Source: Rubripirellula sp. (GTDB taxonomy: Bacteria; Planctomycetota; Planctomycetia; Pirellulales; Pirellulaceae). From it: a stretch of 64,000 bases of DNA. The stretch lies in contig OZ244207.1 in assembly GCA_965216875.1 (NCBI GenBank), forward strand, positions 6,208,001 to 6,272,000, read 5' to 3'. Made by a program: the position numbers. Numbering within the stretch: the first letter of the stretch is position 1; the number at the start of each line of letters is the position of its first letter. Positions 20,101-32,100 of the stretch are shown here, piece after piece.

Positions 20101-23100
20101 CGTGGTTGTGCCTGATCAACGACAACGATTCGAGTTTGCGGAACGAAGGCTGGTTTGCGATCAGTCGACCGATTTGCTGGGGCAATTCCGATTCGTCAAT
20201 CAACAGCGATCGAAGGTTTCGCAGTCGGCCACAGGCGAACAATCCCTCAAGCTGGCTTTCACGTGCTCGCGTGTTGAGCAGCTTCAATGACGAAAGTTGT
20301 TCGAGGTGTTCGGACTTTTGCAGGTCATCGAACTTGGCGGACGTGTAGCGAAGCACAACCGAACGCACGGGAGAATTGGCAAAGATCTCGTCTTGGAGCT
20401 TCAAGAACTTTGCAACGGAAACTTCAACCTTGTCGATGAACCCGCCGCGAGTCCCAATCACTTTTACGAAGGTCGGCACACTTCCGAAATGCCCATATTG
20501 GCGCAGCAGTTTCAGTTCACGACTTCTTAGCTTGCGGCGTTTCGGATCCCACTTGTCGATGTCGGCAAGCTGAAACTGCAATCGAATCAACTCGCCGCGC
20601 GGATCACCCTGCTCTTCCAGATAGTCGGCAAAAACGAGACGCGCGGCATCTTCGTGCGGGTTCGCGATGATCGCAGCAATGAAGTCGTCAGGTGTCACGT
20701 CGAAACCCCGCGGCTTGTTAACCAATCTCGACAAGCGATTTCAAATCGATCACCAACGGTTGGTCGCCGTCGATCGCCAACAATCGTCGTGCGATCTTGG
20801 CTACGACCTCTTGTTCGATCACACGCTGCAGCGGACGAGCCCCAAGCAACGGATCAAAGCCGACAGCCGCAATCCGTTTGACCACGGAATCGTCCCAGAC
20901 CAACGTGACCCGCTTGTCGGTCAGCGTTTCACGTTGCTGAAGTGATTCAAGTTCTTTCTCAACGATCTTTTCGATCACATCGGCTGGCAACGCATCAAAG
21001 GTCACGACTTCGTCGAGTCGGTTCAAGAACTCGGGCCGAAACTCCTGTTCAATGGCTCGTTGCAGTGCGCGATTGTCTTCGCCCGTGAATCCAATCGACG
21101 CGCTGCTTTTGGCGCCCACGTTGCTCGTCATGATGATGATCGAACCACAAAGGGTGGTCGTTCGGCCAAAACGATCGGTCAACCTTCCCTCATCAAGGGC
21201 GGACAACAAACAATCGTGGACTTCGGTCGATGCTTTTTCAAATTCATCCAACAGCAACACCGACATTGGGCGTGCTCGCAATCGCGCAATCCAAGCGGCG
21301 ACCTCACCACTCGGCTCCATCAAGAACCGATCGACGGCGTCCCAACTTCCGTACTCACTCATGTCGAGACGGACGATCGTCTTTTCAAGTAGGTCTGTGT
21401 GGCCGAACAAATAGTCGGCCAAGCTTCGAGCAAGCTGTGTCTTGCCAACTCCTGTTGGACCGCAAAACAACATCGTTGCGACAGGACGACCGGGATCACA
21501 AAGGCCCGCCTTGAGTCGCAAGATCGTATTGGAAGCCGAATCGACAGCGGAATCTTGCCCGATCACCGATTGACGTAGCGAATCGCGAACCGACTCGGCC
21601 GAAAGCGTCACCGAGTCGCGGAGCATCGCTTCAGGCAATCCCGTCAACTTCGTAAAGCGGTCGACAATGTCTCCAACCGCGATCCGCATCTTACGGGTAT
21701 CTTGCTGATCGGCGCCGTTTTGTTGTTGCCAAGTTTGGGTTGATGAATCATCAAGGGTCTGCTGAATCAGATCACCAATCAATTCAACGGTGCCGCGCGG
21801 AGGCGATTGGTACGGCATGAATTGAGCGAACAGTCGCGTCACGGTTTCCGCCGCCGACTCTTCGATCTCGATTCGGTGGTTACGGCCAGCTCCCGAGAGC
21901 ATCGTCTCAGCAATGTCCCGTGTTTGATCATGGGTGAGCGTTGGAACATTGACGATCTGAAAACACTCAACCCAACCCGGTAACAGTCGCCGCGCAGCAT
22001 CAAGTTCTTCGTGAGTCGCTTCGGCGATCACGCGCACTTCGCGTCGACGGATGTAGGGCAACAAAAACGCGGCCAGCGAATCGGTCGGTTGTGAACCACC
22101 GAGGCGCACTAAGTCGACGAGCGATGTGAACGACAGGATTCCGGATATCGACTCCAACTCGGAGATCACTTGTTCAAGCCGCTGCTCCCATTCGCCCAAG
22201 TACTGCATGCCGGCGATCAGGTTCTCGGCCGAAGATTCCCACACCAGGGGCGGCGGAGTGCGATCACCATCGATCTTGGCCTGTTGGCGCGCGTTGGTTT
22301 GATGCAGTTGCGATGCCAAACGCACAACCGTTGATTTTCCACAGCCGGATGGCCCGACCAGAATCAGGCTCGAATCGATCATCCCGCTTAAAACTTGTGC
22401 CACTTCATTGTCGCGATGCTTCAGCGGAGCTGATTTCTGTTTGCGTTGGCGAACATCGATCGGAGAGGCAACGGTCGAAAGCGTTTCGGTGTTGTGCTGT
22501 GGCTTGCGGTCTTCGACGTCGCGCAGCTTGACGCGCACCACGCGCAGTTCCGAATCCGCGGGCGGGGTGGCTGCGAGAAGTTCGCGTGAATCGATCTGTG
22601 CCGTTGCGCCACGAACCGACTCTTCGATCAGTTTCGGCAGTTCGCGAATTGCTGGGCAATGAAAAACAACATCGAAGTCGGTTAGAAAACACTCGACGCT
22701 CTTGTCGACGTAGTGACCCAAGACATACCGAACCGGCAACTTGAGTTCTCGGCTGGCGGGAAACTGTCGGTTTTCGTCACGGTAATAAAGTCGTACGCGA
22801 ACGCTGGTTTCGTTTAGTTCGAACGAGTCGATTCGCGGCCAGTATTGATCGGGCTCGCGCATTCCCTGTTTGCGCAAGTAGTCTCGCACCCAGCTGAATG
22901 CTTCGGACGCAGACGTACCGGCAGCATCCGCGTCGGGTCCGTCAACCACGCGGGCGGTGAAGATGTCTTCGGCGTACTTCGTTACAAGAACGGGAACTTT
23001 TACACTTGTCATTTCGTTGCCTCTTTGTGATCGGGCAAGAATTCGACACTACGGCGCGACTGGCGAACCAATTTCATGAGCGCCACCTGGCCCAACGATT

Positions 23101-29100: not shown

Positions 29101-32100
29101 GAAGGTCCGACCAGCAAGACACTGCGCGCTCGGCTGCTCGAAAGAAGCGAAGCCAATTGCTGGACTTCGTCGTCGCGGTGGTAGGCAGGTCGCAAAGTGT
29201 CGCGGCGCAACCGAGTCGCAACCGTGCCGAGCGTTGGCGTCTTGCTTTTCGGTTTTTCGTTGGCTTTTCGCTTTTTCTCGCTGGGCGTCAGCAGGTCGAC
29301 CTTGAAACGGTGCTGCTCAAGCGAAGCAGTCTGGCTTTTTCCGAGCGCGGCCAATCCCATGAGCTCCCAAGAGCCTTGTCGGCGCAGCGCCGATCGAATC
29401 TGTTCCTGGACCAGACTTTCCACGTCCGTCTTTGGCGTCGAGACGATGGTCAGTGCGAGGGACGGAACGTAAGTCACGATCAAACTGGCGTCTTGTTCCC
29501 AAACGAAGGTGTCGAAGTCGACATCAATCGGTTCGCGCCAAGCATCCGATCGCTTGGGCGGCGCGATCTCGACGGTCACCCTTTCTTGGCGCGCAGGACC
29601 GCGGACAAGTAATTCGACCAGCTCGCCACCGTCACTGCCTTTGCAGGTATCGATGACATACCGACGAACCAAACGGTGCGCGTTGTCTGGATTTCCGGCG
29701 GCGATCGCAATCTCAGGAAAACCAATCGGACGAACGAGAGTGAGTTCACCATGAGGAACGATGACCAAAGGCAAATCGATGTTGATCGACTGGGGCATAT
29801 CGTTGTTGGGAAAAGTGATTGGGTGTCGGCTGGCGCAGCAGCGAACAAGGTTCGCTGTACCTCTGGGTCACCGAAATCGATCGGATCGGCGCGCAGTGGC
29901 AGCACCGATCTAAAACGAGTGTCACATTACAATCGACACATTCAAAACAGCGAGGTTCGTGCCCGTCGCCAGATCCACTCAATCGCGCAAGTTATCGATC
30001 AAGAACGCCCAAAGATCGGCGTACTCATCAATGCTCTTGCTGACCGGCGTTCCCGCACCATGGCCGGCTCGTGTTTCGATGCGAATCAACGTTGGATTAT
30101 TGCATGATTGCGCGGCCTGTAGGGCAGCGGCAAACTTGAAACTGTGGCCAGGCACGACACGGTCGTCACGGTCTGCGGTCGTCACCAGTGTGGCCGGATA
30201 GCAAGTACCCGGTTTCAGATTGTGGAGCGGTGAATAGGACAACAAGTTGTCAATCTGATCCTCTTCGTCGCTACTGCCGTACTCGGTCACCCACGCCCAC
30301 CCGATGGTGAATTTGTGATAGCGAAGCATGTCCATCACGCCGACCGCAGGCAAACTCGCCCCAAACAACTCAGGTCGCTGTGTGATCGCCGCGCCGATCA
30401 GCAAGCCGCCATTGCTGCGGCCCGAGATGGCGAGTTTCTTGGGCTTGGTGTAACCCTCGGCGATCAGGTGTTCGGCAGCCGCAAAAAAGTCATCAAAGAC
30501 ATTTTGCTTCTTCAATCGCATTCCATCCTCGTGCCACTGACGACCGTACTCGCCGCCCCCACGCAGGTTCGCAACGGCATAGATGCCTCCACTTTCGATC
30601 CAACCAGCTTTGGCTGGCGAAAACGAGGGCGTGATTGAGATATTGAACCCACCGTACGCGTAAAGCAACGTGCGATTGTTCCCGTCAAGCTTCGAGTCTT
30701 TGTGACGCGTCACGATGATAGGAACCTTCGTTCCATCTTTGCTCTCGCAGAACAATTGTTCTGTCACATAATCGGAAACTTCAAAGTCGACTTTCGGTTG
30801 CCGCCAGAGATCCGCTTGATTGTTGCCAAGATCAAGTCGATAAATCGAACTCGGTGTGACATAGTTTGTGAAGCTAAAGAACGTTTCCTCGGCATCTTGT
30901 CGGCCACCAAAACCGCTGACACTGCCGACCCCGGGAAGCTCGAGTTCATCGATCAGGTTTCCGCCGAGTCCGTGCCGCGTCACCTTTCCTCGCGCATCTT
31001 TCAACGACCGACAGTAGAAGGTGTCGCCGAAAAGACTGACCGATTCGACAACATCATCCGATTCGGCAATCACACTTTTCCAGGCGTCACGGTCGGAGTT
31101 GCCAACTTCAACGGCGATCAGGCGACGCTTGGGCGCTTCGTTGTCGGTAAGGAAATAGAGCGTGTCGTCTCGAGAAGCGATCCATTCATAGTCCGCATCA
31201 AAGCCGGTGATAATCGGTTCGACTTCAGAATTAGGATCTCGCAAATCTTTGACGAAGATCTGCGACTTCGGTTCACTTCCCTTCCAGTTGTAAATCACCA
31301 AGTAACGACCGTCGTCAGTCACCGCTGGCGAGAACCCCCACTTGGGATGATCAGGACGTTGTAGAACCAGTGTGTCGTCGCTTTGGTCGTCACCGATTTT
31401 GTGGAAGTAGAGTTTTTGGTTTTCGTTGGTTCCGGTAAGCAACTCCCCTTCGGCAGGTGCTTCGTACCGTCCGTAAAAGAACCCACTGCCATCGGGCATC
31501 CAAGCAATTCCGCTGAATTTGACCCACTTGATTTCGTCTTCCAGGTCTTTGCCAGTGGCAACGTCACGAACTTTCCATGTTCGCCAATCGCTGCCGCCAT
31601 CAGCTAATCCGTACGCCAACAGTTTCCCGTCGTCACTTGGCGTCGCGCCCGCCAATGCGATCGTGCCATCCTTACTTAACGTGTTTGGGTCGATCAACAC
31701 TTCGCGTTCGGCATCAAGCGACGATGCCTTGTAAAAAACGCTTTGGTTTTGCAACCCGTCGTTGTGCGAATAGAAGTAGGTGTCGCCGCGACGACGCGGC
31801 AATCCGAATCGCTCGTAGTTCCAAAGTTGTTCCAAACGTTTGTGCATTGACTCGCGTTCAGGAATCGAATGCAAGTACTTGTCCGTGACTTCGTTCTGTG
31901 CCTTGACCCACGCAGCCGTTTCATCGCTTTCGGTGTCTTCCAGCCAACGGTAGGGATCTTTGACGACGCGCCCGTGATAGTCATCCTTTACGTCAACGGT
32001 CGTGGTTTCGGGATAAGTCATGGACGATTCGCTTCCTTTCGCGGGTTGTTGGCAGTAAGCACGTGGCATCGCCACGAGAACCGAACTTGCCGCGATGACA

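Follow-up and report, generated by a model that had tools for sequence, protein, structure and literature searches.

Clp/Hsp100 motors have been described as homohexamers, which find their substrates through N-domains and adaptors. Pex1/Pex6 belongs to an AAA+ clade other than that of Clp. It provides the analogy of a mixed ring with an inactive first AAA+ domain (D1) and an active second one (D2), but has two subunit types and needs its D2 pore-loop aromatics, which it has kept intact (passages of PMC5762779). In the open-access text searched, neither a precedent for a natural Clp/Hsp100 motor of three different subunits nor a published description of a triad like the one analyzed here was found. 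Term searches of the accessible parts of PMC6514570, PMC7159879, and 10.1101/2023.12.08.570793 returned no description, and Clp fusions are not treated in the part of the first, a release-factor survey, that was covered ("Clp", 0 occurrences).

Gene Organization and Relationship to Known Clp ATPases

The triad lies in a window of 64,000 nucleotides from Rubripirellula sp. (contig OZ244207.1), the whole stretch that was analyzed, and all coordinates are window positions. Gene A (26316..29798, minus strand, 1160 aa) encodes a HicB-like pair, a predicted inactive D1, a predicted active D2 with a ClpP loop, and a tail derived from release factor RF2; gene B (23009..26299, minus strand, 1096 aa) has the same layout with a more decayed RF2-derived tail; and the tail-less gene C (20718..23012, minus strand, 764 aa) encodes a HicB-like pair, the same kind of D1, and a D2 with an IGF loop. 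The genes are co-oriented, with a gap of 16 bases between A and B and an overlap of 4 bases between B and C, and ORFs and domain scans bear out the claim of the genome-wide survey's note that three divergent two-ring Clp ATPases are encoded in one operon. A promoter scan of the locus stayed below chance. An overlapping TIGR02996-LRR gene was considered as a fourth part and ruled out, having no homolog at the other fetched loci and eight paralog matches elsewhere in the genome.

All three proteins belong to Clp/Hsp100 class 1 in the broad sense of tandem Clp-type AAA+ domains plus a D2-small domain. They share with ClpA/ClpC (TIGR02639) two Clp-clade AAA+ domains, D2-small, an IGF/L-type loop, and the lack of the ClpB M-domain, but score 260-298 bits where the cut-off is 993 and differ in having no Clp_N, a degenerate D1, a deleted GYVG loop, three co-inherited paralogs, and RF2-derived tails. 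The best NCBIfam model is that of ClpB/Hsp104 (TIGR03346; 292-308 bits, owing to D2, cut-off 1232), from which the triad departs in lacking the coiled-coil M-domain and in carrying the ClpP loop that ClpB lacks. ClpV/TssH was rejected (TIGR03345, 208-236 bits versus 885), and a type VI secretion neighbourhood is absent, there being no recurring neighbours. The Dodola and PDC-M37 defence ATPases, short single-AAA ClpB-like proteins with a partner gene, were also rejected, as the PADLOC matches (E 1e-16 to 1e-30) are confined to D2.

AAA+ Rings and ClpP-Docking Loop

Motifs were counted in full-length orthologs (79 A, 51 B, and 44 C), with five duplicate loci removed and other near-identical relatives included. 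The degenerate D1 Walker B motif, on the minus strand throughout, reads VHLGNLVE in A (28896..28919), YFDDLLG in B (25364..25384), and SFTSLVD in C (22113..22133). The strings previously listed for D1 (HLGNLVEL, YFDDLLGL, and SFTSLVDL) are present and align with LFIDELH of the two ordinary Clp ATPases of the genome, and the D2 string LLDE(F/I)EKA likewise occurs in all three proteins. Among the orthologs, the D1 Walker A lysine is retained (A 78/79, B 51/51, C 43/44), none has DE in the aligned D1 Walker B columns (with a loose pattern, DE-like strings turn up near D1 in 1/79 A, 2/51 B, and 1/44 C), and no Arg is conserved in the D1 arginine-finger columns; the D2 motifs (Walker A/B, sensor 1, Arg finger, and sensor 2) hardly vary. 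As far as sequence can tell, ring 1 is thus confirmed as catalytically degenerate and ring 2 as catalytically intact in A, B, and C. The earlier description of a dead D1 with Walker A and an intact D2 holds for all three proteins, with the reservation that B reads DD/DN; as the acid is not fully lost there, the case for an inactive D1 in B depends on the missing Arg fingers.

The active ring is unusual in its pore. GYVG is found in the D2 pore loop of 0/79 A, 0/51 B, and 1/44 C orthologs, the loop is five residues shorter (spacing mostly 24 versus 29 residues), and an aromatic is present in it in 41/79 A and 30/51 B, often as Phe in both, and in 4/44 C. D1 pore-loop aromatics are kept as Y/F in 45/51 B, in 44/44 C, and as F/Y one position later in 65/79 A. 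For threading, ClpA/ClpB and Pex1/Pex6 require the aromatics in the pore loops of their active ring (passages of PMC5540906 and PMC5762779). With the GYVG loop five residues short and C nearly without an aromatic there, ordinary threading is doubtful.

ClpP-docking-like loops are present on the minus strand in A (PLGL, 27864..27875) and B (SGF, 24407..24415), together with a ClpP-docking loop in C (IGF, 21087..21095). The G[FL] loop occurs in 72/78 A, 49/51 B, and 42/44 C orthologs, its first residue often being A, P, or G instead of I/L/V; the ClpC-like protein of the genome has such a loop, and the ClpB-like protein is without one. IGL/F is a mark of ClpP binding (a passage of PMC5540906), and a putative partnership of the A/B/C ATPase with ClpP is therefore probable. 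Two ClpP proteins are encoded in the genome itself (positions 3440706-3441906 of contig C1).

RF2-Derived Tails and HicB-Like N-Domains

The tails of A and B descend from release factor RF2 (PrfB; PCRF PF03462 and RF-1 PF00472). The A tail (26364..27431, minus strand, residues ~790-1145) consists of the helical domain 1 and domains 2/4, and the B tail (23030..23932, minus strand, residues ~790-1090) is further diverged, acidic, and weakly conserved. Structure and profile comparisons indicate that the class I release-factor domain 1 and PCRF core fold are present, and both tails keep the domain 1 helices, the core of domains 2/4, and the C-terminal strand motif of RF2; they differ from it in that the GGQ catalytic domain 3 is deleted, the SPF/PxT codon-reading loop is absent, and the remainder is fused behind an ATPase. 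Seven GGQ strings in the C-terminal parts of A proteins are scattered at non-homologous positions. With this make-up, the A and B tails cannot be peptidyl-tRNA hydrolases. There are also single-gene relatives that combine a release-factor tail with the same dead D1; in them, domain 3 is present and GGQ lost.

The A tail has conserved motifs (LRR, ExGxH, and RRxY), and its near-invariant residues include two arginine pairs (R806 78/79, R1096 78/79). In Foldseek, its AlphaFold model (pLDDT 76) has release factors alone among the matches listed (best E 4e-7), with TM-scores of only 0.2-0.4, and in VIA-align RF2/RF1/mtRF1 fill the first four rows (Z 14.2-13.3; rmsd 3.4 across 150 residues for one of them). 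When the A-tail profile was compared with 57,054 ORFs of the genome, the best non-self match was its own RF2 (E 4e-8); with the B-tail profile, RF2 ranked third (E 0.011), after an unrelated ORF. Profile-profile comparison with RF2 and the single-gene relatives gave 98.3% for the A tail and 97.4% for the B tail. Pfam PCRF has zero matches on the 21 triad tails scanned, its cut-off being passed by the tails of 8/9 single-gene relatives, and whole-protein Pfam and NCBIfam scans left the termini of A, B, and C unmatched. A small A-tail profile found RF2 and an unrelated NKG2-D row at the same level (E 0.002) among PDB sequences, which is weak evidence if taken alone; a tail query of the ESM Atlas gave PCRF clusters, all under 0.9 and a lead only. 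The net charge of the B tail is acidic (median -10) and that of the A tail about neutral, which is not expected of a strong RNA binder and counts against ribosome docking. The genome encodes RF1, RF2, and two ArfB-sized RF-1-domain ORFs, the same as in three triad-less relatives, so that the triad fills no visible rescue gap.

The N-terminal region had been reported as a novel one replacing Clp_N; Clp_N is indeed matched by 0/31 triad N-termini, but the region appears to be a HicB-like pair. It covers residues 3-172 of A (29283..29792, minus strand; two HicB-like units, profile match to 2yzt TTHA1756 with E 0.023), residues 1-172 of B (25784..26299, minus strand), and residues 1-165 of C (22518..23012, minus strand; model pLDDT 93), and the N-domains of A and B are homologous to that of C (97.7% and 90.7%). 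Each half resembles HicB in fold, the best structural and sequence matches being modest (Z at most 6.1): HicB or HicB-like chains take the top five VIA-align rows for the C N-domain (Z 6.1-4.9), consistent with the partial RNase H fold of HicB, with no Foldseek or HicB Pfam match and no usable ESM Atlas match for the N-domain. The N-domain differs from HicB in having two units per chain and leads into D1, the C-terminal DNA-binding domain of HicB not being there; hicA is no recurring neighbour among ORFs of at least 100 aa, a screen that excludes very short hicA ORFs. In HicB, the partial RNase H domain binds and blocks HicA (a passage of 10.1101/2023.12.08.570793).

Distribution and Genomic Context

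Relatives of the triad were found in planctomycetes, myxobacteria, Acidobacteriota, Saprospiraceae, Verrucomicrobiota, and Bacillota, and the set is patchy, being present in just 12/121 genomes of the class. Across 87 loci, 43 have A, B, and C in order, nine have AB, 33 A only (21/33 with at least 3.5 kb of room), one CA, and one B. The gene order claimed to be fixed does not vary among linked genes, but splitting of the operon is common; in 24 split-operon genomes, B lies elsewhere in 23/24 and C in 21/24. Each genome has one copy each of A, B, and C with a fixed architecture, the three form separate cross-phylum clades, and subunit-specific motifs are common to the myxobacterial sets too. 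A, B, and C are thus co-inherited as distinct subunits, and the separate clades together with co-occurrence despite broken operons support a three-subunit machine better than gene order does. Of the hetero-oligomeric unfoldase proposed by the survey, the oligomer gains from these clades and is probable; "unfoldase" has to be qualified, as the sole active ring has lost GYVG.

Conserved neighbours are limited to common kinases and regulators, with no translation gene conserved and no toxin, defence, or effector gene recurring beside the triad. No relatives were found on plasmids (query N-domain plus D1) or on viral contigs in a search that reaches close relatives only. No RF3 scores above cut-off in this genome, and RF3 as target or substitute was ruled out, since five genomes show no pattern.

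Proposed Function and Alternative Explanations

The best explanation, with a probability of about 0.45, is a heteromeric Clp ATPase partnered by ClpP that would dock on ribosomes through an RF2-derived tail during translation stress. A, B, and C would be subunits of one double-ring ATPase, A2B2C2 in the simplest form. Ring 1 would bind nucleotide without hydrolysis, providing the scaffold and holding the substrate; ring 2 would power the motor and dock on ClpP, and binding of substrates or regulators would fall to the HicB-like N-domains. The A tail, perhaps aided by that of B, would be the targeting module: keeping the ribosome-facing body of RF2 with neither stop-codon reading nor peptide release, it may guide the motor to ribosomes whose A site is open or jammed, and a nascent chain, bound factor, or ribosomal protein would be extracted or degraded there. 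Docking through the tail itself has about an even chance. A point against it is that the tails are attached at the end of the ring that faces ClpP, so that a simultaneous fit of ClpP and ribosome is questionable.

The loss of GGQ and SPF suits a decoy as much as a docking module, and the tails and HicB-like domains might be baits for RF2 or HicB binders, with the prey (candidates are ribosome-directed toxins, HicA-like RNases, phage proteins, and release-factor cofactors) passed to ClpP by a counter-toxin or defence protease for which ribosome contact is unnecessary. The patchy yet many-phyla distribution and the resemblance to a domain that blocks HicA (10.1101/2023.12.08.570793, in part) point the same way; such a protease is nevertheless unlikely given the lack of recurring conflict-related neighbours, PADLOC matches limited to the common D2, no finds on plasmids or (for close relatives) viral contigs, and a single-copy, fixed architecture unlike that of diversifying conflict systems. 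RF3 cannot be general prey, as none exceeds the cut-off here. Another reading, less likely still, is a non-threading remodeller or ClpP switch, in which the ATP consumed by ring 2 serves to move the RF2-like arms or to gate ClpP, so that ribosomes are split or silenced or proteolysis is turned on without chains being pulled through the pore. It agrees with the lost GYVG and shortened D2 loop, active-ring aromatics being needed for threading (PMC5540906 and PMC5762779, in part), but not readily with the retained D1 aromatics, the frequent Phe in the short D2 loop of A and B, and the ClpP loop kept in all three.

It is improbable that the motor is a heteromeric unfoldase of general use in stress proteolysis, with RF2-derived tails that are relics or structural clamps: the tail of A keeps its full fold and invariant surface-type residues across phyla, and ClpB- and ClpC-like proteins are already encoded in the genome, even if the weak conservation of the B tail and the graded decay from RF2 through single-gene relatives and A and B to the tail-less C would be expected of relics. 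There is similarly little to expect from three separate homo-hexamers acting in one pathway. In every gene, the D2 site is complete and comes with an Arg finger and a ClpP loop of its own, the genes are often unlinked, and single-gene relatives with a dead D1 and a release-factor tail exist; the near all-or-none, single-copy presence of A, B, and C and the subunit-specific motifs reaching even myxobacteria oppose this, and C, without tail and D2 aromatic, is hard to see working alone.

A clue to the role of the triad may come from Myxococcus xanthus, in which MXAN_4823-4825 encode three Clp ATPases (1149, 1127, and 836 aa) from a single operon (PMC6617876; PMC11423568 Table S1, which gives the GenBank accessions ABF91057.1, ABF88121.1, and ABF88791.1). 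Chloramphenicol raises the three genes by log2 3.57, 2.67, and 2.61, and ClpC by 1.19; in the parts of these sources that were covered, they otherwise appear only as annotated, chloramphenicol-induced genes (PMC6617876; PMC11423568). The likeness to the triad, one operon of three divergent Clp ATPases in long-long-short order, rests on size and number; the M. xanthus proteins are neither among 95 search matches nor among the relatives listed, and MXAN_4825 exceeds the C proteins of its relatives by about 70 aa, but other myxobacteria carry true A/B/C sets. Chloramphenicol may also induce proteases generally, which weakens the clue.

Implications

Docking on ribosomes would tentatively imply, at somewhat less than an even chance, a new bacterial ribosome quality control, in which a three-subunit Clp-ClpP enters the A site via a dead RF2 mimic and dismantles or degrades antibiotic- or toxin-stalled complexes. 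If true, such a mixed ring, with its three fixed subunits and its one dead ring, would offer a natural test of the division of labour within Clp motors, and a release-factor body used as a protease address label would tie the termination machinery directly to proteolysis, giving planctomycetes, myxobacteria, and other large-genome bacteria an extra rescue or shutdown route. Should the M. xanthus operon prove to be orthologous, the question could be taken straight to a genetic model for which an inducing condition is known.

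Gene organization and genomic setting

In the 8.26 Mb genome of this planctomycete, three neighbouring minus-strand genes encode two-ring Clp/Hsp100 ATPases, namely A (29798-26316, 1160 aa), B (26299-23009, 1096 aa), and C (23012-20718, 764 aa). A and B are separated by 16 bases, B and C overlap by 4 bases, and the three proteins share pairwise identities of 27-34%; their closest named relatives, compared over the first AAA+ domain (D1), are from Pirellulaceae (65-72% identity). Only two further two-domain Clp/Hsp100 ATPases were found in the genome, one ClpB-like and one ClpC-like; the genome-wide survey's note sets the triad apart from the normal ClpB and ClpC. 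Every score of the NCBIfam Clp models on A, B, and C was far under the cut-off, and the M-domain is absent from all three. The triad belongs to Clp/Hsp100 by descent but falls outside ClpA/C, ClpB, and ClpV by the membership tests of each.

The end of gene C is overlapped by the gene of a TIGR02996-domain LRR protein (19469-20734, minus strand), which was rejected as a triad partner (eight paralog matches in the genome, none adjoining other triads); no recurring fourth gene was found beside triad loci. A short Lys/Ala-rich reading frame with KKAAKKK repeats (17890-18216, minus strand) looks histone H1-like by eye. Some 32 kb separate the triad from the RF2 reading frame of the genome (61768-62820, plus strand); this nearness is probably coincidental, and the RF2 start appears to sit in a different frame (putative frameshift). 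RF3 (prfC) was not detected above cut-off in the whole genome and was present in two of four relatives tested.

Catalytic motifs of the two rings

Motifs were compared in full-length orthologs with a class margin above 150 bits, which, after removal of five duplicate loci, comprised 79 A, 51 B, and 44 C proteins. The motif strings reported earlier were correct. Across the set, the aligned Walker B columns of D1 never read DE: A has GN or GS, B has DD or DN, and C has EN, ES, DS and similar. All catalytic motifs are found in the second domain (D2). The D1 Walker A lysine is retained (A 78/79, B 51/51, C 43/44), and no conserved Arg occupies the D1 arginine-finger columns of the aligned orthologs. 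This motif pattern, together with established AAA+ chemistry, suggests that D1 probably binds nucleotide without hydrolysis. Nucleotide binding by NBD1 stabilises hexamers of ClpA and ClpB, and ClpA docks on ClpP through its IGL/F loop (PMC5540906). Two features go beyond the genome-wide survey's note. A loop of this docking type, G followed by F or L, occurs in most proteins of each class (A 72 of 78, B 49 of 51, C 42 of 44), and is present in the ClpC-like and absent from the ClpB-like protein of the genome. Compared with ClpB/ClpC, most of the D2 pore loops are five residues short; GYVG is found there in none of the 79 A and 51 B proteins and in only one of 44 C proteins, and an aromatic residue is left in 41/79, 30/51, and only 4/44, respectively. 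The aromatics of the D1 pore loop are retained.

C-terminal tails derived from RF2

A and B carry approximately 350 and 330 extra C-terminal residues, whose likeness to release factors was first spotted by eye, from motifs typical of them, and tested afterwards. The A tail was modelled with AlphaFold (11-row alignment, pLDDT 76), and the model gave 32 Foldseek matches at E of 0.001 or below (best 4e-7, TM only 0.2-0.4), and all those listed were class I release factors or their chains in ribosome complexes. Against 48,161 chains, VIA-align ranked RF2, RF1, mtRF1, and RF1 at the top (Z 14.2, 13.8, 13.3, and 13.3), the fourth with an rmsd of 3.4 over 150 residues of the non-helical part; the first unrelated row had Z 10.2 and PrfH 9.4. 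When a profile of 79 A tails was searched against 57,054 genome ORFs, the best non-self match was RF2 (E 4e-8), with no RF1 among the matches listed, and the B-tail profile placed RF2 third (E 0.011).

Lone Clp ATPases of other planctomycetes (L042-L050, L162) have a dead D1 and an intact D2 followed by a complete RF2-like tail, which aligns end to end with RF2 and has retained domain 3 but lost GGQ. The Pfam PCRF cut-off was passed by eight of nine, and HEAT repeats were found in five of seven N-termini. With E required to be below 0.01, their profile matched 35/79 A and 16/51 B tails and no shuffled tails, and profile-profile comparison with RF2 and these relatives together gave probabilities of 98.3% (A) and 97.4% (B). 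Both triad tails have lost the GGQ domain and the SPF loop; they descend from RF2 but are not release factors. Near-invariant residues among the 79 A tails, R806 (78), R807 (70), E878 (78), Y944 (76), the E1046-G-x-H motif (75, 76, and 72 for E, G, and H), and R1096 (78), indicate that this tail is under selection.

N-terminal domains

The N-terminal domains of A, B, and C are homologous to one another (profile probabilities 97.7% and 90.7%). A confident model of that of C (pLDDT 93) retrieved, in VIA-align rows 1-5, 7, and 8, N-domains of HicB antitoxins or uncharacterised, presumably HicB-like proteins, at Z 6.1-3.6, values common by chance. TTHA1756 (2yzt) was matched by the A profile (E 0.023) and the C profile (E 0.17), in different halves. 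Neither Foldseek nor Pfam gave a match; a tandem HicB-like fold is therefore likely, not proven. The N-domain profile of C matched 388 clusters (50% identity), and in the 150 listed the domain was N-terminal in proteins of about 730-860 aa or in shorter pieces, probably fragments.

Distribution and evolution

Among 87 loci, 43 have A-B-C in order, 9 AB, 33 A alone (21 with at least 3.5 kb of room), one CA, and one B. Where the genes are linked, the fixed order previously proposed thus holds, but split operons are common. Of the 34 genomes where B does not follow A, 24 were searched: B turned up elsewhere in 23 of them and C in 21, always as a single strong copy. Three of the 24 had supplied query rows, and all are assemblies of unknown completeness. 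Neither was found in the genome of locus L121 (G412), whose A is truncated at 667 aa, possibly a decaying set, and direct classification placed B and C elsewhere in one further genome (G098). Of 121 near-complete genomes from the class, taken as background, 17 gave matches: three strong ones in 12 genomes and one weak, unclassified match in five; in the family of the studied genome, only one of 18 others has the set.

In a tree of 96 AAA cores (11 rows, including most myxobacterial second genes, were dropped by the cutting rule), B, C, and A formed separate cross-phylum clades (support 99, 100, and 93), apart from canonical Clp proteins (100). Named carriers include Planctomycetota, Acidobacteriota, Verrucomicrobiota, Saprospiraceae, Bacillota, Sericytochromatia, and Myxococcota (three or more strong matches in 6 of 81 sampled genomes). 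Myxobacterial first genes fell in A (94), third genes formed their own unresolved clade, and the myxobacterial genes conform to the A/B/C pattern in their D1 motifs. Many third-gene relatives there (P0008-P0040) are 1000-1070 aa long with weak tail-profile scores, suggesting that the third subunit sometimes retains a tail; P0027 has PF03462.

Many species of Myxococcus, Corallococcus, and Pyxidicoccus have C-type proteins of 763-778 aa, with no M. xanthus protein among the matches listed. In M. xanthus, MXAN_4823-4825 form a single operon for three Clp ATPases, and chloramphenicol induces it (log2 3.57, 2.67, and 2.61 at 8 h; ClpC 1.19; PMC6617876). The three proteins measure 1149, 1127, and 836 aa and are 28-31% identical to ClpA (PMC11423568, Table S1). 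By number, order, and size, these genes may be orthologous to the triad.

Possible function

Our preferred reading, with a probability of about 0.45, is a ribosome-directed Clp motor: A, B, and C would form a mixed double ring, with the dead D1 as scaffold and D2 supplying power, which would couple to ClpP and be brought to ribosomes by the non-catalytic RF2 body. The likeness to Pex1/Pex6 (PMC5762779) is an architectural analogy only. Against this reading stand the shortened D2 pore loop, the acidic B tail, the ordinary release and rescue factor set of the genome, and the ClpP face of the ring, from which the tails would emerge by the presumed geometry.

A bait-based counter-toxin protease, in which the HicB-like domains and the RF2-derived tails would serve as lures, seems unlikely. 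A remodeller that does not thread its substrates, favoured by the short pore loop and disfavoured by the retained docking loop, seems slightly less likely still. We regard two further readings as improbable. One is a general stress unfoldase whose tails would be relics, against which stand the near-invariant residues of the A tail. The other is three separate homohexamers, favoured by the lone relatives, a likely homo-oligomeric counterpart of the triad, and disfavoured by the recovery of B and C where the operon is split.

The triad is a real, conserved variant of Clp ATPase and apparently undescribed, as no description was found in the literature searched, including three comparative papers searched by term (most subscription papers lay outside the search). 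The single-gene relatives offer a simpler test object, and the triad itself a way, open to experiment, into what would be a new type of ribosome quality control.
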